Assembly: GCA_043826455.1 (NCBI GenBank)
Contig: JBDRQD010000077.1
Coordinates: forward strand, 1-35,631
From: Candidatus Bathyarchaeota archaeon
GTDB taxonomy: Archaea > Thermoproteota > Bathyarchaeia > TCS64
DNA length: 35,631 nt
Direction: 5' to 3'
Shown here piece after piece: positions 2,726-35,631 of the stretch (positions are counted from its first letter, which is position 1; every line of letters begins with the position of its first letter). Under the pieces are notes generated by a model that saw only the letters and a program-made list of their open reading frames with translations, ran no database searches and was not told the DNA's origin. Made by a program: the position numbers and the translations under genes.

Positions 2726-2808
2726 GCGGATGTTCCCGAGTGGCCAAAGGGGTCAGGCTTAGAACCTGATGGACTAGTCCTCCGTGGGTTCGAACCCCAC
2801 CCCACATG
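2726..2808 (+). tRNA. tRNA-Leu(TAG) with a non-complementary 3' acceptor strand (possible pseudo-tRNA)
   Basis: 5' GCGGATG; D arm CCCGAGTGGCCAAAGGGG; anticodon arm TCAGG-CT TAG AA-CCTGA; variable arm GGAC-TA-GTCC; T arm GTGGG-TTCGAAC-CCCAC. The 3' strand is CCCACAT instead of the expected CATCCGC. Confidence 0.85.
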
Positions 2809-2856
2809 TAGTTAATATTTTATCTTTAACTGAACAGTGACATCCTCAGGGATTCT

Positions 2857-3690
2857 ATGAGTAGACTGGAAGGAAAGACTGCGCTCATTACAGGTGCAGC
2901 TAGTGGAATAGGAGCAGCAACATCGAGACTATTTGTTGAAGAAGGTGCAAAGGTTCTGCTAACCGATATCATGGACGATGATGGAACAGCTTTAGCCGAT
3001 GAGCTTGGCCCCAACGCTCACTATCTTCACGTTGACGTCTCCAAAGAGAAACAGATCAAGAAGGCAGTTCAACGCTGTGTGGATGAGTGGGGAAAACTCG
3101 ACATTATCTTCAACAACGCTGGCTTTGGAGGAGTACTCGGATCAATAACTGAGATCACTGAACAAGGAATAGACAAAACAATAGACGTCCTCTTCAAAGG
3201 AGTATTGTACGGGGTTAAACACGCTGCGATAGTAATGAAGAGGCAAGGATATGGCTCAATTATTAACAATGCAAGCACAGCTGGAATACGCACAGGCAAC
3301 GGCCCTCACATATACAGCGCCTGCAAGGCAGCGGTAATACAGTTGACTAAAACCGTTGCCTCAGAGATCGGTAAGGATGGCATACGAGTGAACTGTGTCT
3401 GTCCTGGAGGCATTGCTACCCCTATCTTTCTTCGCAGCTTTGGGTATTCCCAAGAAGTCGCTGAGGCTAACCTTGATTTTCTTGAAAGAATGTTAGGTCG
3501 GGGTAGTCATATTGGTCGCTGTGGCACTCCGATGGATGTCGCTAAGGCTGTTCTGTGGCTCGCAAGCGATGACTCGACGTATATTACAGGTCAACCCATT
3601 GTGGTTAGCGGTGGTTCAACAAATGGTGGATTATGGGAAGACATTGAGATACATTTCCGTGCACGTGTAGAAAAAGAAATCAATAAATGA
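2857..3690 (+). CDS. Short-chain dehydrogenase/reductase (SDR)
   Basis: TGAASGIG, NNAG, catalytic YSACK and IRVNCVCPG. Confidence 0.95.
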   Translation: MSRLEGKTALITGAASGIGAATSRLFVEEGAKVLLTDIMDDDGTALADELGPNAHYLHVDVSKEKQIKKAVQRCVDEWGKLDIIFNNAGFGGVLGSITEITEQGIDKTIDVLFKGVLYGVKHAAIVMKRQGYGSIINNASTAGIRTGNGPHIYSACKAAVIQLTKTVASEIGKDGIRVNCVCPGGIATPIFLRSFGYSQEVAEANLDFLERMLGRGSHIGRCGTPMDVAKAVLWLASDDSTYITGQPIVVSGGSTNGGLWEDIEIHFRARVEKEINK

Positions 3691-3700
3691 ATGCTACTAA

Positions 3701-3717
3701 CTTTTATCCCTTTTTTT
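3701..3717 (+). terminator. T-rich archaeal terminator after the SDR gene
   Basis: CTTTTATCCCTTTTTTT directly after the stop codon. Confidence 0.5.
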
Positions 3718-3774
3718 ACGAATCCTCTGTGTGTTTTATAGTTGAGTGATCAGAGACACACCATCGTTGGCATA

Positions 3775-3849
3775 GAAGAATCCAGCTTCGTCATTGGGCA
3801 CCCTCTGGTAATCGATGGAGGACTAAGTCTTGGTTGGAATTGGGAAAAA
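3775..3849 (+). pseudogene. C-terminal remnant of a second SDR gene
   Basis: Translates to EESSFVIGHPLVIDGGLSLGWNWEK, matching the neighbour's DDSTYITGQPIVVSGGSTNGGLWED. In-frame stop at 3739-3741; no N-terminal part. Confidence 0.7.
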
Positions 3850-3868
3850 TATTACGAGAATGAATTAA

Positions 3869-4666
3869 TTACTCTAATCTTCTAGCAAGATCGATCCTCA
3901 GCAAATTAGAGCTGTAACTTCTTGAGACGCCTAGAACTTGTTTAACATCAAGGGATTTGATTGCATCCAGTATCGACTTGTTGAAACCTATGTCCTCCTC
4001 CTTAGGGGCGCCATAGAATATTCTTCCTCTCTGCCCCGACCATACTTCTTTATATGTTGTGTCGCTTGGCGTAGCGATAGGATATGAGCAGTCCGGTTCT
4101 CCATCCATAGCATGGATATACTTGTATCCCAGCATAGGAGCCCCTCGCGGGTTCTGATTCATGGCTTCGATCACCTGTTCAGGCTGCTTGCTCTTTGGCT
4201 CTACCTCTATGCCAAAGAGAAGATTCCCATATAGAGAAACCTCGCATCTGATCTTGCCATCCAGCATGATCCTCGGGTCAGATATGTCGCCGTAAAGCTT
4301 AGGCACACCCAGCAACTCTCTTCCGCCGATAATAGGCATCGTATTGTCCTCATACATAACTACGATGAAGCTTCCCTCAGTCACACCATGTTTTCCCTCA
4401 TGAATCGCTGACACCGATACTGTGGCTATCCTGTATCCTCTTCCTTGTAAGAAGTCCACACCGTCATTGTAGACAAAGGAGGCCGTTACCACGGGTTTTT
4501 CGCTTGGATGATAACAATCCGGGAGCAGTTTCTCTATTTTGCTCGTCGCTGTTAGAAACTGCAGCGCGAAGATCTGACGCTCCCTATAGAGAACGCCACC
4601 ATCTGAGTCAAGCATCATGCCACCCAGCAATGGCATTATGTATACCTTTTTCGGATCTTGTTTCAC
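3869..4666 (-). CDS. Acetoacetate decarboxylase family protein
   Basis: GGRELLGVPK motif with the Schiff-base Lys; N-terminal YIMP. Confidence 0.85.
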   Translation of the reverse strand: MKQDPKKVYIMPLLGGMMLDSDGGVLYRERQIFALQFLTATSKIEKLLPDCYHPSEKPVVTASFVYNDGVDFLQGRGYRIATVSVSAIHEGKHGVTEGSFIVVMYEDNTMPIIGGRELLGVPKLYGDISDPRIMLDGKIRCEVSLYGNLLFGIEVEPKSKQPEQVIEAMNQNPRGAPMLGYKYIHAMDGEPDCSYPIATPSDTTYKEVWSGQRGRIFYGAPKEEDIGFNKSILDAIKSLDVKQVLGVSRSYSSNLLRIDLARRLE

Positions 4667-4746
4667 TTTAAACTACTCCTTTTCTCATCTAAAAATATAC
4701 AGCACTCTTAAAGTCTTTATCCCACTTGGAGTTCCGATTAATAAAA

Positions 4747-4808
4747 AGTGGAGGTTATCGGGAGGCATCTCCACTGAGGGCAGGGTTCGAATCCCATCGA
4801 GCCCGCCA
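4747..4808 (+). repeat. Hairpin plus tRNA 3'-end fragment with CCA (att-like, Arg/Lys type)
   Basis: AGTGGAGGT...ATCTCCACT stem, then GAGGGCAGGGTTCGAATCCCATCGAGCCCGCCA. Confidence 0.7.
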
Positions 4809-4881
4809 TCTACTGAACCGGGCCCTGTCTCAATTCCTTTTCCTGTTGAGGATATACGCGCTGTGCAGAATTGGACGCTTA

Positions 4882-5430
4882 CTAGGCTCTCTTGAACCTT
4901 GTTCTACTCATCTCAGTTACAAAGTATTCTCCCCAGATATGATTCAAGGGTTTAACCTTCTCAACGTCCAATACCTCATCCACTGCGGCATAATCCACTT
5001 CCACCTCCAGTATTTCTCCGAAAATCCAGACAGCTCTCTCCGAGAGCTCAACATATTTAGTCATCCTGCACTCAAACCAGGCATAGGCTTCTTTTATTCG
5101 GGGCGCCTTGACATGGTTTGATTTCTGCTCCGTTAAGCCACATTCCTTTATTTCACTGACCTCATATGGAAAGTCTTTCTCCAGGACCTCCATCAATGGG
5201 CCGAAGCTTTCATCTACAAGGTTTACTACGAACTCCCCGTTCTCCTTTATGTTGGTCCAGGTGTCATGGCTCTTCGTTGACTCGAATCCGAATAACGGCG
5301 TGGGGCGGGTCGCTGCCGGTGAGTTGAAGCTAAAGGGGGCGGCGTTTGAGACCCCGTTTGGGGAGACGGTTGATATTATGACTGTGGGTCTTACCAGTAG
5401 CTTGTAGAACTCTGTTAAATCCAGGTTCAT
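4882..5430 (-). CDS. Flavin reductase-like (flavoredoxin/DIM6-NTAB) FMN-binding protein
   Basis: ISTVSPNGVSNAAPFS, DTWTNIKENGEFVVN and APRIKEAYAWFEC. Confidence 0.9.
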   Translation of the reverse strand: MNLDLTEFYKLLVRPTVIISTVSPNGVSNAAPFSFNSPAATRPTPLFGFESTKSHDTWTNIKENGEFVVNLVDESFGPLMEVLEKDFPYEVSEIKECGLTEQKSNHVKAPRIKEAYAWFECRMTKYVELSERAVWIFGEILEVEVDYAAVDEVLDVEKVKPLNHIWGEYFVTEMSRTRFKRA

Positions 5431-5560
5431 AGCTTTTCGCAGTTTATGAATGACACTTTTGATACATGTGTCTTTGCAGAGGGGGCGCGCCGTGTGATAG
5501 GTTCAAGAATGCATCTGATACAGATTAGATAGTTATTATTTTACATGTAAATCGGTGTCT

Positions 5561-5580
5561 GATCCCTATCCCCCGCACCA
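5561..5580 (+). repeat. Degenerate tRNA-Leu-like 3' end with CCA
   Basis: GATCCCTATCCCCCGCACCA; CCCCCGCA-CCA is the 3' end typical of archaeal tRNA-Leu genes starting GCGGGGG. Confidence 0.55.
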
Positions 5581-5769
5581 TTAACCCAACCCACCGCACT
5601 TGAGGTTATCTACGTTTTTCACTAGCATGAATGTACGGGGGGTTTGACCCCAATCTGATGATGTAATGATTACGGTGGCAGCTTTAGTTGTTCGATGCAG
5701 CTAGCAGGGGAGAAGTCTTAAATCACCCAAAATGAAAATTTCGGGAAGCTACTGAAGAGGAAAGCGGAA

Positions 5770-6132
5770 ATGATCGAGAGCTTCTACTGTGTCAATGTCT
5801 TTACCAATAATATAAAAGAGCTCGTCGAGTTTTACCATGAGAAACTGGAAATCCCGATATTAGGCACGCTGGACGACGACACAAACGGAGTTAACCTCGG
5901 ATTCATTTCGAATGCTCCGATGATATGCATTTGGGATGCCAATAAAGTTGATTCGCCTGTCCAAGGAACGGTCTCCTTCGTTTTTATGTGCGAAAACCTA
6001 GACAAGACATGTGAGGAATTGACCCAAAAAGGCATGACATTCGCCCCGCCAGTTAAATATGAATGGGGTACATACGAGCTACGTCTAAGAGACCCTGACG
6101 AAAATGAAGTCGTGATTGCGGAGCGGTTTTAG
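5770..6132 (+). CDS. VOC (glyoxalase/bleomycin resistance) family protein
   Basis: LVEFYHEKL and PPVKYEWGTYELRLRDPDENEV. Confidence 0.9.
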   Translation: MIESFYCVNVFTNNIKELVEFYHEKLEIPILGTLDDDTNGVNLGFISNAPMICIWDANKVDSPVQGTVSFVFMCENLDKTCEELTQKGMTFAPPVKYEWGTYELRLRDPDENEVVIAERF

Positions 6133-6134
6133 AG

Positions 6135-6230
6135 GACTTAAAACTGATTCTGTACCTTGAAACTGCTCATCTATTAGCTGAAAATGAAAAACAGTTCATA
6201 AAGATGTGACCGAGTTCCTGATAAATAAGA
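6135..6230 (+). pseudogene. Possible frameshifted C-terminal remnant of an alpha/beta hydrolase
   Basis: DLKLILYLETAHLLAENEKQF, then a frame change to KDVTEFLINK. This resembles the catalytic-His and final-helix segment of such enzymes. Confidence 0.35.
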
Positions 6231-6237
6231 AAAGAAT

Positions 6238-6285
6238 GTGGTGATATCACCACTGGCGGTAGGGTTCGAACTCACCCCACGCACA
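6238..6285 (+). repeat. Palindrome plus tRNA-Leu-like 3'-end fragment (att-like); right end of the left array
   Basis: Perfect palindrome GTGGTGATATCACCAC, then TGGCGGTAGGGTTCGAACTCACCCCACGCACA. Confidence 0.7.
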
Positions 6286-6532
6286 AACATAACCTTATCC
6301 TTTTTTAGCTAATTTTTATTGTAGATGATGCAGGCATTACTGCGCCTTCGTAATTTTCTTTTGCCTCTCTCGGCTTTGCCACCATTTCTCTTATATCTAA
6401 TTCACGGAAAAACTCTGAACATGCACGCGCGCGGGCCGGATAAAATCTTTCGGTGACCTCAGACTACTACTTGCTGCACAATAATCGTCTCGAAAAAAGC
6501 CTTAACAGTTCTCGTTCTGGCTCATGAAATAA

Positions 6533-31369: not shown

Positions 31370-31595
31370 GGAGAACGTGAAGAGGATTTGGATCATCTTC
31401 TTTCTTGGTGTTGCGGCCTCGTCGGGGTCGGCTACCCCATTGGTTGAAGAATCCGCCAATGGGGGATTCCACCTACCTTTTTTTCATATACACCCCAGGT
31501 CTCGTCGGCCTCGCGGGATTGGTGACTCGTTTTATGGCTGAAAAAACCACCATAAAATGATACCCCCCTACGTTTTTTACACATCAGGCTCTCAG
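31370..31595. repeat. Dispersed non-coding repeat family A, copy 2
   Basis: GGTGACT.GTTTTATG.CTGAAAAAAC..CCATAAAATGATACCCCCCTAC.TTTTTT.CACATC.GG shared with about 2298-2365. Confidence 0.8.
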
Positions 31596-32021: not shown

Positions 32022-33236
32022 CTACTTGGTTTTGGCTCTCTTCTGGGTCATTATCTTGACCACGTCCCTGTGCCTGAGGGTGTAGTCCTTGGGTAGGCGG
32101 AGGCCTGTGCGGGCGTCTATGGCCAGTATGTAGTCCTCGGCTAGTCGTGTGTGGACGGTCTCGGCCAGGTCCTTGGGGGTGGCGTCGTTGGGCATGAGGT
32201 GGGCGTCGGGGAGCACGTTGCCGTCGCCGTCGGTGTACTTGTTCTCGTCGCTGACTGGGTACACCATGTTGCGGCGGAGGAGCTTGAAGGCCACGGTGTT
32301 GAGGGCGTGCTGGATGCCGGTCCTCATGAACTTGTACATTACCCTGTGCTCTATGTACTCTATGGCCTTCCTCTGGTCCAGGGAGAGCTGGGCCTCGTCC
32401 ACCACGGTGAACTTCTCCTGGCCAGGGGCGTACTTGATGAGGCCGCTCCTGTCGGCGCGTCTCAGGGCCAGCTCGGCCTCAGCTGAGCACGCCGCCACCA
32501 GGCCGTCGCTGTGGTACTCTATGAGCTTCTCCAGGTTTTCCTCGGCTGTGGGTAGGTCCATCTTGTTGGCCATGAGGAGGGTGGGCTTGATGATGGGCAG
32601 GAGGCTGGAGCTGAAGTCAAGAGTCTCCTCGGGGGTCCACCTAGAGATGGGTTTGTCGTTTAGCTCGGACTTCTTCAGGGCCGCCACCACGTCGGGGACC
32701 CTGGTCTTTATGCCTGTGAGGACCTTGGCGAGGGCCGCCTCCAGGCTGGTCTTCTCCGCCTCTCGCTCCATTCGCTGCTTGTTCCGGTCCAGGATGTGGC
32801 TGACCCAGAGCTCCATCTCCATCTCTATGTCCATGAAGTCCTGGACGGGGTTGCCGCTGCCCGGGCTGCTGATTTTGCCCTCCTCGTCCACGCTGCCTGA
32901 GGCGTCCACCACGTGGATGAGGGCGTCGGCCTGGCCTATGGCTGAGAGGAACCTGTTGCCCAGGCCGCGGCCCCTCCACGCGTCCTTCACTAGGCCGGGT
33001 ACGTCCACGATCCTCACGGGGATGTAGCGCCACCCCTCGATGCAGGCGCTGTTCTTGGGCTGGTCCTTGACTCCTAGTTCCTGGCAGACACATATGTCGC
33101 AGGTGTAGGCGGTGCCGGCGTTGGGCTCCTTGGTGGTGAAGGGGTAGTTGCTTATCTCGGCGTTGAGGAGGGTGGCGGCGTTGAAGAGGGTGGTTTTTCC
33201 TACGTTGGTTTTTCCTACGATGGCGAAGGTTAGCAT
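32022..33236 (-). CDS. ychF: Archaeal YchF/OLA1-family translation-associated NTPase
   Basis: GKTNVGKTT, NYPFTT, DVPGLV, GRGLGNRFL, NKMD, C-terminal TGS. Confidence 0.93.
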   Translation of the reverse strand: MLTFAIVGKTNVGKTTLFNAATLLNAEISNYPFTTKEPNAGTAYTCDICVCQELGVKDQPKNSACIEGWRYIPVRIVDVPGLVKDAWRGRGLGNRFLSAIGQADALIHVVDASGSVDEEGKISSPGSGNPVQDFMDIEMEMELWVSHILDRNKQRMEREAEKTSLEAALAKVLTGIKTRVPDVVAALKKSELNDKPISRWTPEETLDFSSSLLPIIKPTLLMANKMDLPTAEENLEKLIEYHSDGLVAACSAEAELALRRADRSGLIKYAPGQEKFTVVDEAQLSLDQRKAIEYIEHRVMYKFMRTGIQHALNTVAFKLLRRNMVYPVSDENKYTDGDGNVLPDAHLMPNDATPKDLAETVHTRLAEDYILAIDARTGLRLPKDYTLRHRDVVKIMTQKRAKTK

Positions 33237-33292
33237 GGTTCACCCATTATTGTTTATTGAAGTTATGGAATATGAGTGGTTCGATCAGAAGG

Positions 33293-33326
33293 TGGCACTG
33301 GGAGTGGGATTCGAACCCATGCGGTT
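33293..33326 (-). repeat. tRNA-Ser-like 3'-end fragment with CCA (att-like); boundary of the right accessory tract
   Basis: Minus strand reads AACCGCATGGGTTCGAATCCCACTCCCAGTGCCA. Confidence 0.75.
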
Positions 33327-33353
33327 AAATTGAATACGATTATTGTCTGAGAG

Positions 33354-33764
33354 ATGAAATTCAACAAGCTCATTCCAGAGCTGTCTGTGACTAATATCCA
33401 AAAAAGTCTACAGTTTTATGTGGATACTCTTGGGTTCACAATCGATTATTCCAGACCCGAGGACAAGTTTTACTTCCTATCATACGAAGGCTCTCAGATA
33501 ATGATCGAGGAAATCAACAACCACTGGTGGACGGGGGAACTTGAACACCCGTTCGGGAGGGGGATCAACTTCCAGATGGAGGTGAGCGACGTATCTGTTC
33601 TCATGGAAAGACTTGATGAAGCTAATATAACTCTGTTCCGTCCTCTGAAAGAGAGCTGGTACAGGGGCGAAGATACCGAGTTTGGCCAGATAGAGTTCCT
33701 CGTACAGGACCCTGATGGATACCTGCTGAGATTTACTCAAGACATTAGGGAGAGAATATTGTAA
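33354..33764 (+). CDS. VOC/bleomycin-resistance family protein
   Basis: LIPELSV, FYVDTLGF, PFGRGINFQ and EFLVQDPDGYLLRF. Confidence 0.92.
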   Translation: MKFNKLIPELSVTNIQKSLQFYVDTLGFTIDYSRPEDKFYFLSYEGSQIMIEEINNHWWTGELEHPFGRGINFQMEVSDVSVLMERLDEANITLFRPLKESWYRGEDTEFGQIEFLVQDPDGYLLRFTQDIRERIL

Positions 33765-33767
33765 GAA

Positions 33768-33818
33768 TGGCTCAGGAAGGGTTATGCACCTAAAATTTTA
33801 TTCTATAATATTCGTTAT
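33768..33818 (-). repeat. About 50-bp direct repeat, copy 1 (degenerate tRNA 3' end plus conserved flank)
   Basis: TGGCTCAGGAAGGGTTATGCACCTAAAATTTTATTCTATAATATTCGTTAT, matching 35341-35392. Confidence 0.85.
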
Positions 33819-33829
33819 GAGGGTTAGAT

Positions 33830-33875
33830 TTTCGGTTAAAACCGAAATTTTCTGTAAATACCGAAAATTTAAATA
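33830..33875 (+). promoter_or_regulatory. Two tandem inverted-repeat operators abutting the TATA box of the TA operon
   Basis: TTTCGGT-taaa-ACCGAAA and AAATTTTCTGT-aaat-ACCGAAAATTT, then TTTAAATA about 25 nt before the start. Confidence 0.7.
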
Positions 33876-33900
33876 GAGGACGCATTTGAATTAAATTGAG

Positions 33901-34515
33901 TTGAACCTTTCATCCTTCCAATCCTATCGAGTAGCAAAACACCTACTAGAACACAAGTCCTCAAGTCAGACAGATATCTCCAATAAAACAGGCGTAGCCA
34001 TCGGGTACGTCAATGAAGTCGTTCACGAGTTATCAGACCTAAACATAGTGAAAATAGAGTACGGAAAAACCATGCTGATGGATCACGTGAAGCTGTTAGA
34101 GAAGATAAGCTTCGACAGACCCTATAAGAAACTTGTACACGCAGAGTTCAGACTACCCGCATCAACAATAATGGAAACAGAGAAAATGGTAACACAGTAC
34201 TGCTTGAGCAACAACATCGAACACGCTTACACGATGTACAGCGCCCTCAAACACTACTACGAGTACCACATCACCTACCCCGCAATACACGTCTACGTAA
34301 AAAACCCTGAAAAAATAGGGGAAATAGAGCAGGGAGAAGGAGCAATCCCGGTAATCGTGCTTAAGCCCGATAGACCAGACATCATAGAGCAATCGCTAAT
34401 TAAAGCCGAAAACAGAATATGCGATAAAACGCAGGTCCTAATCGACCTATACTCAAGTGGCGTAGGCAGAGATGCAGCAATAAGATTCTACAGGGACACG
34501 ATATGGAAGAGCTAA
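33901..34515 (+). CDS. AbiEi-like type IV antitoxin / winged-HTH regulator
   Basis: N-terminal HTH (SQTDISNKTGVAIGYVNEVV); C-terminal AYT..SA, IHVYV and QVLIDLY...GRDAA. Confidence 0.75.
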   Translation: MNLSSFQSYRVAKHLLEHKSSSQTDISNKTGVAIGYVNEVVHELSDLNIVKIEYGKTMLMDHVKLLEKISFDRPYKKLVHAEFRLPASTIMETEKMVTQYCLSNNIEHAYTMYSALKHYYEYHITYPAIHVYVKNPEKIGEIEQGEGAIPVIVLKPDRPDIIEQSLIKAENRICDKTQVLIDLYSSGVGRDAAIRFYRDTIWKS

Positions 34516-35300
34516 CAGTCATAGCTAGACACTCATACCAGGAGCTCTTGGACCTACTACTATGGTTCCACCACCAGGGCCCGACGCCGATACTGATTGG
34601 AGGCTGGGCAGTCTACCTCTACAACTCCTATACAGGGTCCGTGGACGTAGACTTGGTCGGTCCAAGCATGGGAGGCCTCTTCGATGCCACATTAGAGAGC
34701 TTTGAACGGGAACGAGGATATCAGCCAGTGGTCTTCGGACCCATGGGTCTAGGAACCAGCTTCAGGAAACCTATCATCGAGTCCGGTGAGTTGCATGGGT
34801 ACATGGAGATCGATGCATGTACATACGAGAACGACAACCGGGTCTTCAAGGAAAACCCGCTGAAAGAGTTGCCTTATGAGCTGTGCTCAAGAGAAGGGAT
34901 GACTGCTCAGGTGTTATTAGATAGGAGTTGTGAAGCCCTGATCCCTGTGAAGCCTTTGTTGTTTCTATACAAACTGAAGGCGTTGAGAGATAGACAGTAC
35001 GATCTTCGAGAGCAGGGCGCGGTGCTCGGGTATGAGAGGGCTGCTTGGCTGAGGTCGAAGATGGTGAAAGACGGCTCTGATCTGATTAGTCTGCTTGACT
35101 CAGGGGATTATCCTCGTGTGGTTAGTCAACGGTTTGACTCAAGTATATTGAGGAAGATAATTGACGAATATGACCTGGGTTTTATTGTCGAGAGCATCGA
35201 GTCCCTACCTTTAATGTATGAATCTCGCCAACTATACAGAAACATTGATGAAAGCGCCGTGAAGCAATGGGTTATACGCATCCTAGATGAACTACAATAG
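34503..35300 (+). CDS. AbiEii-like Pol-beta nucleotidyltransferase (putative type IV toxin)
   Basis: LIGGWAV...SVDVD and KLKALRDR...KDGSD; 13-nt overlap with the upstream gene. Confidence 0.78.
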   Translation: MEELTVIARHSYQELLDLLLWFHHQGPTPILIGGWAVYLYNSYTGSVDVDLVGPSMGGLFDATLESFERERGYQPVVFGPMGLGTSFRKPIIESGELHGYMEIDACTYENDNRVFKENPLKELPYELCSREGMTAQVLLDRSCEALIPVKPLLFLYKLKALRDRQYDLREQGAVLGYERAAWLRSKMVKDGSDLISLLDSGDYPRVVSQRFDSSILRKIIDEYDLGFIVESIESLPLMYESRQLYRNIDESAVKQWVIRILDELQ

Positions 35301-35340
35301 TTAAACAAGCCTGGTTTCGACAAACATGATTTAAATTATT

Positions 35341-35392
35341 TGGCGCAGGGAGTGGTATGCACCTAAAATTTTATTCTATTGATATTCATTAT
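35341..35392 (-). repeat. About 50-bp direct repeat, copy 2 (tRNA-Ser-like 3' end CCACTCCCTGCGCCA)
   Basis: TGGCGCAGGGAGTGGTATGCACCTAAAATTTTATTCTATTGATATTCATTAT. Confidence 0.85.
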
Positions 35393-35436
35393 TGGGCGCG
35401 CGCTTACAGGTATAATTTTCCTGTGTTTATCAAGTT

Positions 35437-35466
35437 GAGCGGAAGGGATTCGAAACCCGGCGGTTT
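35437..35466 (-). repeat. Degenerate tRNA T-arm fragment
   Basis: Plus strand GGGATTCGAAACCCGGCGGTT compared with GGGATTCGAACCCATGCGGTT at 33306-33326. Confidence 0.6.
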
Positions 35467-35631
35467 GAGTTGTCATTTCGAAAACTAAATCCCAAGTCAA
35501 CTATTTAAACGGCCTGAGGCATCTAGGAATCATATACTCTTATTGGAATCTCGTTTGCGTGTGTAAATACATTAATAACTTTTATGTTCTATGAATAAAT
35601 TGAATCATAAAACTCACGTTAACTTATATTT

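Follow-up and report, generated by a model that had tools for sequence, protein, structure and literature searches.

How do four fragments of tRNA 3′ ends come to lie in the same orientation between small genes at the right end of contig JBDRQD010000077.1 of a Candidatus Bathyarchaeota archaeon? The window, i.e. the whole contig of 35,631 nucleotides (C77 of the source genome G000; 2.95 Mb, 81 contigs, 97.7% complete), carries these fragments, here referred to as sites D, C, B and A from left to right, between positions 33,293 and 35,466. An original prediction, made from the sequence alone, had taken them for an independent second instance of one integron-like system, bracketing a VOC gene and a toxin-antitoxin (TA) module, and had expected an intact minus-strand tRNA, probably tRNA-Ser, beyond the right edge. 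Based on a comparison with 70 related genomes (71 including G000; other G numbers denote related genomes, L numbers fetched loci and C numbers contigs), we conclude that the stretch is likely to represent the distal part of a series of mobile elements which inserted successively at the 3′ end of tRNA-Ser(TGA), each of which left a copy of the tRNA tail and the older of which were likely trimmed. Elements with integrases of more than one family probably accumulated in tandem at the tRNA end, after which integrase-proximal DNA was lost and useful or addictive genes were kept.

All four co-oriented minus-strand fragments of the original prediction are present (Table 1), as is the drop in GC content that it had described near the first of them, upstream of ychF. 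The GC content is 0.615 in the GTPase gene vs 0.448 and 0.449 in the D-C and C-B intervals, and lies between 39 and 45% in the three intervals of 475, 1573 and 92 bp. The assignment of one VOC gene to the first interval and of one two-gene operon to the second was also correct: D-C corresponds to the VOC gene with its PF00903 match, C-B to two overlapping genes, and B-A (92 bp from start to start) is free of genes. An Rfam search revealed nothing in the stretch under study.

Table 1 Features at the right end of the window, with the tRNA-end sites listed first; positions are those of the window.
Feature	Position	Strand	Basis or remark
Site D, displaced tRNA-Ser(TGA) 3′ end (T-arm to CCA)	33293..33319	-	25/27 to the end of tRNA-Ser(TGA) on C57
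Site C, decayed 15-nt tRNA-Ser core (33768-33782) and integrase-family arm (33783-33821)	33768..33821	-	arm score 23.5
Site B, exact tRNA-Ser(TGA) 3′ core (35341-35355) and integrase-family arm (35356-35394)	35341..35394	-	core 17/18
Site A, tRNA-Ser(CGA)-like T-arm fragment	35438..35457	-	19/20 to Ser(CGA); ~45 bp past the arm of B, gene-free between
VOC leader, 34 bp, TATA-like TTAAAT at 33325-33330	33320..33353	+	sequence; putative promoter
VOC/glyoxalase-family gene, 136 aa	33354..33764	+	PF00903, E 2e-7, over cut-off
Two 18-bp palindromes, predicted antitoxin operators	33830..33866		upstream of the operon, 1 bp between
Predicted AbiEi-like antitoxin, 204 aa, N-terminal winged HTH and second domain	33901..34515	+	TrmB/HTH_24, Atlas lead
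Predicted AbiEii/MenT-like nucleotidyltransferase toxin, 265 aa	34503..35300	+	overlaps the upstream gene by 13 bp
Obg/YchF-like GTPase gene	32022..33236	-	Pfam YGR210-like_G4, MMR_HSR1, TGS; host flank distal to the island

The sites are of at least two types, with B and C carrying an integrase-family arm, as opposed to D, a T-arm-type end of Ser(TGA), and A, which is Ser(CGA)-like. The 14-mer of the core of B occurs in G000 only at B and in tRNA-Ser(TGA). The core of C is weak and ambiguous, with 13 of 14 aligned bases matching Ser(CGA) across a 2-nt gap (score 9) vs a score of 8 for Ser(TGA), and C is recognizable mainly by its arm. For the region upstream of A no arm family was found across the 71 genomes. 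A joint arm family of A and D was rejected, the common pattern matching only the VOC site of G108, an intact tRNA-Ser(CGA) and one place without a tRNA end among the loci that were checked, with three of ten outside G000 opened. D reads as the distal boundary of both the island and the VOC unit.

One explanation for such fragments is that they are inherited regulatory leftovers, i.e. parts of promoters or terminators, or chance matches in AT-rich DNA. The local control speaks against chance, since two sites with at least 20/27 matches are found within 33,241-35,631, where simulated sequences contain 0.015 on average and none of 200 contains two or more. Genome-wide, 20 stray tRNA ends with at least 22/27 matches face a single one in the reversed control; at 21/27 the comparison (30 observed vs 31 in the control, which kept reversed tRNA genes) is uninformative. 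A and C score below this informative threshold of 22/27, the arm of D would be the VOC promoter, and in G004 and G018 the VOC gene persists at the locus with eroded sites, all of which would fit the regulatory or chance explanation. However, the family-wide controls described below also speak against chance, the arm remains constant beside cores that differ according to the tRNA nearby, and the locus exists as an empty site in G017. Taken as a whole we consider this explanation highly improbable; for B, C and D it is largely refuted, and for A alone it may still hold.

The expected tRNA is located on another contig of the same genome. There, tRNA-Ser(TGA) (C57:83922-84007) follows a rusA-like gene and is itself followed, after 60 bp, by an open reading frame (ORF) for a tyrosine integrase of 437 aa and then by 10.4 kb of cargo with a GC content of 46.8%, which encodes an OLD-like ATPase, a WYL protein, exonuclease III-like and radical-SAM-like proteins and transposases, with an insertion sequence at the contig end. 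Six cargo proteins were scanned, and no conjugation, mobilisation or transfer family was detected among them. In G017, rusA, tRNA-Ser(TGA), 76 bp and the GTPase orthologue are contiguous, which represents the empty site, and in G004 a single contig carries rusA, tRNA-Ser(TGA), the VOC gene at 3.4 kb and the GTPase gene at 8.3 kb. Given this synteny, and since the bases after C (TTCTTACA) are identical to those after the intact tRNA in L220, C57 is likely to join the right end of C77, so that the intact tRNA and the co-oriented 3′ fragment would be part of one replicon. The sequencing depth (7-14 vs 10.8) is compatible with this join. Both the intact tRNA-Ser and an integrase, which the original prediction had proposed to look for past the right edge, were thereby found, placed there by synteny. 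Positions 33333-33348 of the window within the VOC leader show, by eye, an exact 16-bp match to L001:9337-9352, which is intergenic in the C57 island.

Next, we consider the arms that tie B and C to this integrase. The arm of B (~35 bp) matches the inverted attL arm at C57:84004-84038 at 26 of 35 positions and the arm of C matches the inverted C57 arm at 21 of 35 without gaps. An arm matrix built from 20 bases at each of ten tRNA-integrase junctions, and trained without B or C, scored two training sites in G000 with 25-25.6 and both B and C, in inverted orientation, with 23.5; the next best non-training site reached 17.0. Since B and C thus carry, in inverted orientation, the arm that separates tRNA and integrase, the two sites are putative attR ends of the C57 integrase family: B is likely to be the attR belonging to the element that begins at the C57 tRNA, and C reads as the attR-type end of an older element. 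Outside G000 the pattern of arm and tRNA 3′ 15-mer was found 23 times in 17 of the 70 genomes vs three control matches, with cores of Ala, Ser, Arg or Lys type, 13 of which match a tRNA end at 13/15 positions or better (background 8/3000). In G001, an Arg(CCT) core is present at both ends and the arms match at 25 of 35 positions. We predict an attP of two inverted arms of ~35 bp around a 14-bp centre, with an overlap of ~6 bp (CCACTC) at tRNA positions ~62-67; the middle of the centre falls at the junction of T-stem and acceptor stem, which corresponds to the J site described for Islander (PMC4383910). A reading of B as a full attP junction was rejected, with a P′ arm score of -0.8 behind B, and in the absence of this P′ arm the element between B and C appears to lack its left end.

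Repeated tRNA ends could also result from a casposon-type mechanism, in which a Cas1-like integrase duplicates the tRNA 3′ end as a target-site duplication (TSD) at each insertion. Indeed, a core of 14-15 bp together with inverted repeats at the element ends resembles a TSD with terminal inverted repeats (TIRs), and tandem casposons have been described (PMC6563490). However, no Cas1 (PF01867) match was found in G000 at a completeness of 97.7%, and the gene that immediately follows the arm encodes a tyrosine recombinase. Moreover, the inverted arms overlap the last four bases of the tRNA at one end and are offset by four bases at the other, and are therefore not in the register of TIRs. We regard this mechanism as the least probable of all those considered.

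In the C57 integrase, R153, K198, Y279-x-x-R282, H309 and Y317 show a conservation of 96% or more across an alignment of 77 sequences; we interpret them as catalytic residues on the basis of the general tyrosine-recombinase pattern (PMC8371274). The protein matches the profiles recomb_XerA_Arch and PF00589 only, both of them weakly; the PF00589 search of G000 missed it, and the ORF came to light on inspection of the sequence that follows the tRNA. At C57, a tyrosine integrase adjoins the att site, as is required of Islander-type islands. The genome contains three copies of the family, each 60-155 bp after a tRNA, and among 79 related loci, 65 of which extend at least 250 bp upstream, a co-oriented tRNA is found there in 39. 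Altogether 41 tRNA-adjacent members carry 16 anticodon labels (one of them probably a miscall), and near-identical integrases reside at different tRNAs, e.g. with 85-91% identity at Lys, Pro and Val, or the two closest G000 copies at Ser and Ala. From the sequence comparison the family appears to change its target tRNA often. The clearest recent target switching is seen in Thermoplasmatota (L047-L055), where integrases with 85-91% identity and a common AT-rich arm follow tRNA-Pro, -Lys and -Val. Inverted tRNA-end fragments soon after the integrase stop codon, at C57:85436-85462 (Met-like) and at L197:458 (an arm-type site in G047:C256), may mark secondary insertion or inversion.

The family is present in 32 of the 70 other genomes, and many of its members are fragments or contain stops. 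Right after tRNA-Ser(TGA), it was found in one of 35 regions that had not been chosen for it, and is truncated there; G043 and G002 also carry it after this tRNA, with a stop or split. The integrase behaves as a passenger and not as a resident of the locus. A search for attR within 10 kb of 47 tRNA-adjacent integrase loci yielded one candidate (L065). Viral contigs contained no integrase relative, and all nine arm matches found there were without a tRNA-like core. Since the family reaches into Nitrososphaerota, some autonomous members have probably already been catalogued, and autonomous relatives are probably to be found among the described thaumarchaeal elements.

The VOC unit deserves separate consideration, because it bears on an alternative, a cassette system. 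In this scenario, an integrase located beside the tRNA would act in trans on circular forms of small gene units that never had an integrase of their own, inserting them at tRNA 3′ ends with the youngest unit closest to the tRNA; the locus would then operate as an integron does, with tRNA ends as its att sites. The gene is tightly bounded by sites, with D 34 bp upstream and C starting 3 bp after the stop codon. (All NCBIfam matches of the protein were below the cut-off; a TTAAAT or ATAAAT box at similar spacing is present in most close homologues.) In favour of a cassette system, L220 shows a minimal state of intact tRNA-Ser(TGA), VOC gene and D-like site without integrase, and the same junction between tRNA and 475-bp unit, likewise without integrase, is found in L221 and G008. 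Both L220 (25/27) and L166 (Arg core) have a D-equivalent site at -34 from the VOC start. Among the 23 loci of VOC homologues with at least 66% identity, an upstream tRNA end of at least 20/27 was found in six of 22 and a downstream end or arm in nine of 23, whereas for homologues below 66% identity these numbers are 0/65 and 1/64 (random background 0/300). Four Arg-flanked copies form a clade with 100/99 support, and in G017 an 89% identical copy lies beside a Leu-type site while the Ser(TGA) locus is empty. Since the junction bases after the stop codon are kept, to the base, beside Ser-, Arg- and Leu-type ends, we conclude that the VOC unit has moved from one tRNA end to another at least once.

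However, several observations weigh against a highly mobile cassette. Most close VOC homologues are without clear sites, and in G004 and G018 the gene persists at the Ser locus with eroded ones. No intact tRNA-Arg is present in the G108 stretches shown, which include one of the VOC copies, and a single move from Ser to Arg can account for the whole Arg clade. Furthermore, 14 of 20 inner branches of the VOC tree are open, and a grouping of all five Arg-labelled rows was not rejected (p-AU 0.36).

The C-B interval contains a predicted antitoxin-first bicistron, which ends 40 bp from site B and whose partner gene was found in 19 of 21 homologous loci. The predicted toxin has no Pfam, NCBIfam or PADLOC match over the cut-off, and PDB sequence searches with both proteins revealed nothing relevant. 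Among 29 aligned members of the antitoxin, 23 match TrmB and 17 HTH_24, the Atlas lead for its C-terminal domain is AbiEi_2 (score 0.89), and Foldseek returned only HTH folds, none at E ≤ 0.001. The toxin has an invariant G33-G34, S46, D48 and D50, and its AF2 model (pLDDT 91.9) finds MenT3/TglT as best Foldseek matches (E 1e-4) at a low TM of ~0.4. We thus predict an AbiE/MenT-like TA module; structure prediction, with a MenT3/TglT-like fold, supports the TA label of the original prediction. As in AbiE/MenAT type IV TA systems (PMC7319586), a predicted winged-HTH two-domain protein and a predicted nucleotidyltransferase form a bicistron with paired inverted repeats in the promoter, and two or more such repeats occur in ten of the 21 homologous loci. 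In contrast to the repeats described for AbiE promoters, which are 23 bp long with 3 bp between them (PMC7319586), the palindromes here are 18 bp long and 1 bp apart, and no profile is matched over its cut-off.

At none of the 21 homologous loci is the TA pair bracketed by sites. Only the homologue in G013 (84-86% identity) has one flank, namely an orthologue of C with a Ser(CGA) core upstream of the pair, and is without a B-type site. Since only this locus keeps a site, the TA pair is better regarded as cargo beside an attR than as a unit that is bracketed everywhere, which speaks against the cassette alternative. The suggestion that homologues of the cargo elsewhere would have the same flanks consequently held for the close VOC homologues and failed for the TA pair. 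A parallel to the C-B interval was observed at C27:292-2648 of G000, where two Leu-type sites of a third arm type bracket a two-gene module (285 and 382 aa) that is AbiE-like by eye.

Short intervals of one or two genes recur in G000 at C12, C27, C75 and at the left end of the window, and likewise in G231:C10; the intervals in such arrays range from 92 bp to more than 10 kb. In G231:C10, a tRNA-Arg and three Arg-core sites of three arm types lie within 7 kb, without an integrase match; in G231:C3 and G020:C110, sites are located 2.8-14 kb from their tRNAs. In G047:C91, both arms are 1.3 kb apart with no trace of an integrase, and in G010:C265 a decayed integrase fragment lies between two such sites 569 bp apart, i.e. 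trimming from an autonomous element is seen there directly. The recurrence of short intervals, the locus in G047, which fits trimming as well, and the occurrence of sister integrases at different tRNAs would fit capture of cassettes in trans. However, single arrays contain several arm types, a P′ arm, which is missing behind B, would be expected at a cassette-to-cassette junction, the integrase is found after Ser(TGA) in no more than the one unselected region mentioned above, and no joints at the sites were found in the contigs of the source run (Logan). On balance, we consider the cassette system unlikely, although it is a considerably stronger candidate than the casposon-type or the regulatory explanation. 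Equally doubtful is the more specific claim that Bathyarchaeia possess a tRNA-hopping tyrosine integrase, with constant inverted arms of ~35 bp and a changing tRNA overlap, that excises and re-inserts integrase-less units down to 475 bp at many tRNA 3′ ends.

With respect to integrons, the array resembles them in layout only. Single ORFs are tightly bounded by sites. However, no TIGR02249 (IntI) match in G000 passed the cut-off, the best reaching 33.7 of 265 bits, nor did C57 yield one, all eight strands of the four sites fold no better than shuffled sequences (z -0.45 to +1.73), as opposed to an attC hairpin, and one site family with a resident integrase is not what is seen (at least two types here, three in G231:C10; integrase in 1/35). 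From this, together with the interval lengths, the patchy or broken integrase, its decayed remnant in G010 and the missing brackets around the TA homologues, we conclude that the idea of one integron-like system finds no support; an independent second instance is seen in the weak sense that several tRNA loci of G000 show a similar pattern. Compared with integrons, archaeal integrons and CALINs as they are described (10.1101/2022.02.06.479319), small site-bounded ORFs, TA cargo and polar growth, which we assume here, are shared, whereas IntI, the attC hairpin, a single site type and a sedentary integrase are not, and the sites are tRNA ends.

Tandem accretion with subsequent trimming, which we favour, would have proceeded as follows. 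The 475-bp VOC unit would have come to the tRNA end first, leaving D. A TA-bearing element of the C57 family would then have recombined at the junction of T-stem and acceptor stem, leaving C, and its integrase-bearing left part would have been lost, with the TA pair being kept because it is probably addictive. A later element of the same family may have inserted at the tRNA, running from the C57 tRNA and integrase through over 10 kb of cargo and then the assembly gap as far as B, and A would be a gene-free scar near the right end of this later element. What was observed are the sites, which fall into two types, C57 with its tRNA and integrase, the match between the inverted arms, and three states of the locus in relatives (empty, with the VOC gene only, with an integrase); the order of events is inferred. 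Att-like ends persist in the remnants, and their mobilisation together with a neighbour, or in trans by an integrase, is conceivable; once a trimmed remnant is moved by the enzyme of its neighbour, the accretion and the cassette explanation can grade into each other.

Several points weigh against this course of events. The core of C lies between Ser(CGA) and Ser(TGA) and allows no firm assignment, and no integrase could be assigned to D and A. A complete element of the C57 family with tRNA, integrase and attR on one contig was not seen. No bridge between C57 and C77 was found in the assembly contigs or Logan contigs, nor an extension of C77; of 42 Ser(TGA) regions that extend over 300 bp downstream, only two contain the GTPase gene in the sequence fetched, and only one of 14 same-genus GTPase orthologue loci has a tRNA within its 1.5-kb flank. 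Using the family HMM, no integrase remnants were detected in the intervals of the window (33200-35631) or in 12 other intervals, with L142 as the only match; the loss of an integrase here is therefore one that we infer, and the units may never have had one. Finally, the conservation of the VOC junctions is poorly explained by independent trimming.

The pattern fits the description of CIMEs and microCIMEs in Streptococcus ICE/IME arrays, which are stacked at one target with att sites without recombination genes, the most decayed lying furthest from it, and measure 1.2-13 kb with or 130-220 bp without cargo (PMC7563491). Here, att-like sites without recombination genes flank the VOC and TA intervals. 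The differences from that description are the archaeal host, the smaller one-gene unit (475 bp), several arm families per array and the absence of conjugation and mobilisation genes from the scanned part of the C57 cargo (six proteins). The ssrA islands of Dehalococcoides, 15 of which are without an integration module and were proposed to be mobilizable in cis, share tandem islands, direct repeats of the 3′ end and a conserved upstream motif, but depend on a serine recombinase and a single tmRNA target, in contrast to the tyrosine recombinase, the 15 anticodon types and the bipartite inverted arm here (PMC3146451). Cryptic integrated elements of Thaumarchaeota, as described, also have tyrosine integrases at tRNA 3′ ends and short att sites (median 17 bp), and arrays by re-use of sites are mentioned, whereas these elements are 2.6-98 kb in size and were found through their integrase, and the text consulted mentions neither one-gene units without integrase nor the inverted arm nor Bathyarchaeia (PMC6563490). 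By title or abstract, we found no report of such arrays in Bathyarchaeia, with subscription papers being mostly outside the coverage.

Side observations at other loci concern related sites. The first array of the window (2726-6300) begins with a tRNA-Leu(TAG) copy that is damaged (2726-2806; 33 bits in Rfam). Behind this copy lie an SDR gene, acetoacetate-decarboxylase-like and flavin-reductase-like genes and a VOC gene. The array has one site at 4781, with an Arg core and the third arm type, and another at 5553, with a Leu core and the second arm type; near 6250-6275 there is a weak motif, and no integrase-family remnant was found. At about ten sites in G000 (C19, C25, C28, C30, C31, C67, C69, C77:5553, C80), the 3′ end of a tRNA-Leu is preceded by a palindromic arm (TTTACTAGTAAA-like), and a tRNA-Leu(TAA) at C67:29217-29326, followed by the inverted arm and a PF00589 integrase, represents a second arm-integrase pair. 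Long pseudo-tRNA copies with broken 3′ ends head short arrays at C67:20028 of G000 (Leu-TAA) and in L222/L223 (mutated Ser, called Ile-TAT by ARAGORN). Positions 2297-2365, 31520-31588, 913-966 and 2443-2573 of the window are copies of dispersed repeats with many genome-wide matches, often right after tRNA genes.

Island finders of the Islander type reject candidates that are shorter than 2 kb or without integrase (PMC4383910), and remnants such as these therefore escape them, despite the ~20 stray tRNA ends in G000 alone. Since the inverted arm ties one site type to its probable enzyme, a recombination assay becomes possible. If the hopping integrase described above were real, it would be an equivalent of the integron in which tRNA tails act as universal att sites and overlap homology is relaxed. 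Such relaxed homology would bear on specificity switching of integrases and could give a retargetable archaeal integration tool; if it is not relaxed, the locus would be a clear-cut example, from archaea, of how accretion and trimming gather genes for defence and detoxification. The hotspot is likely to keep one or two useful genes per insertion, with the integrase genes being lost later.

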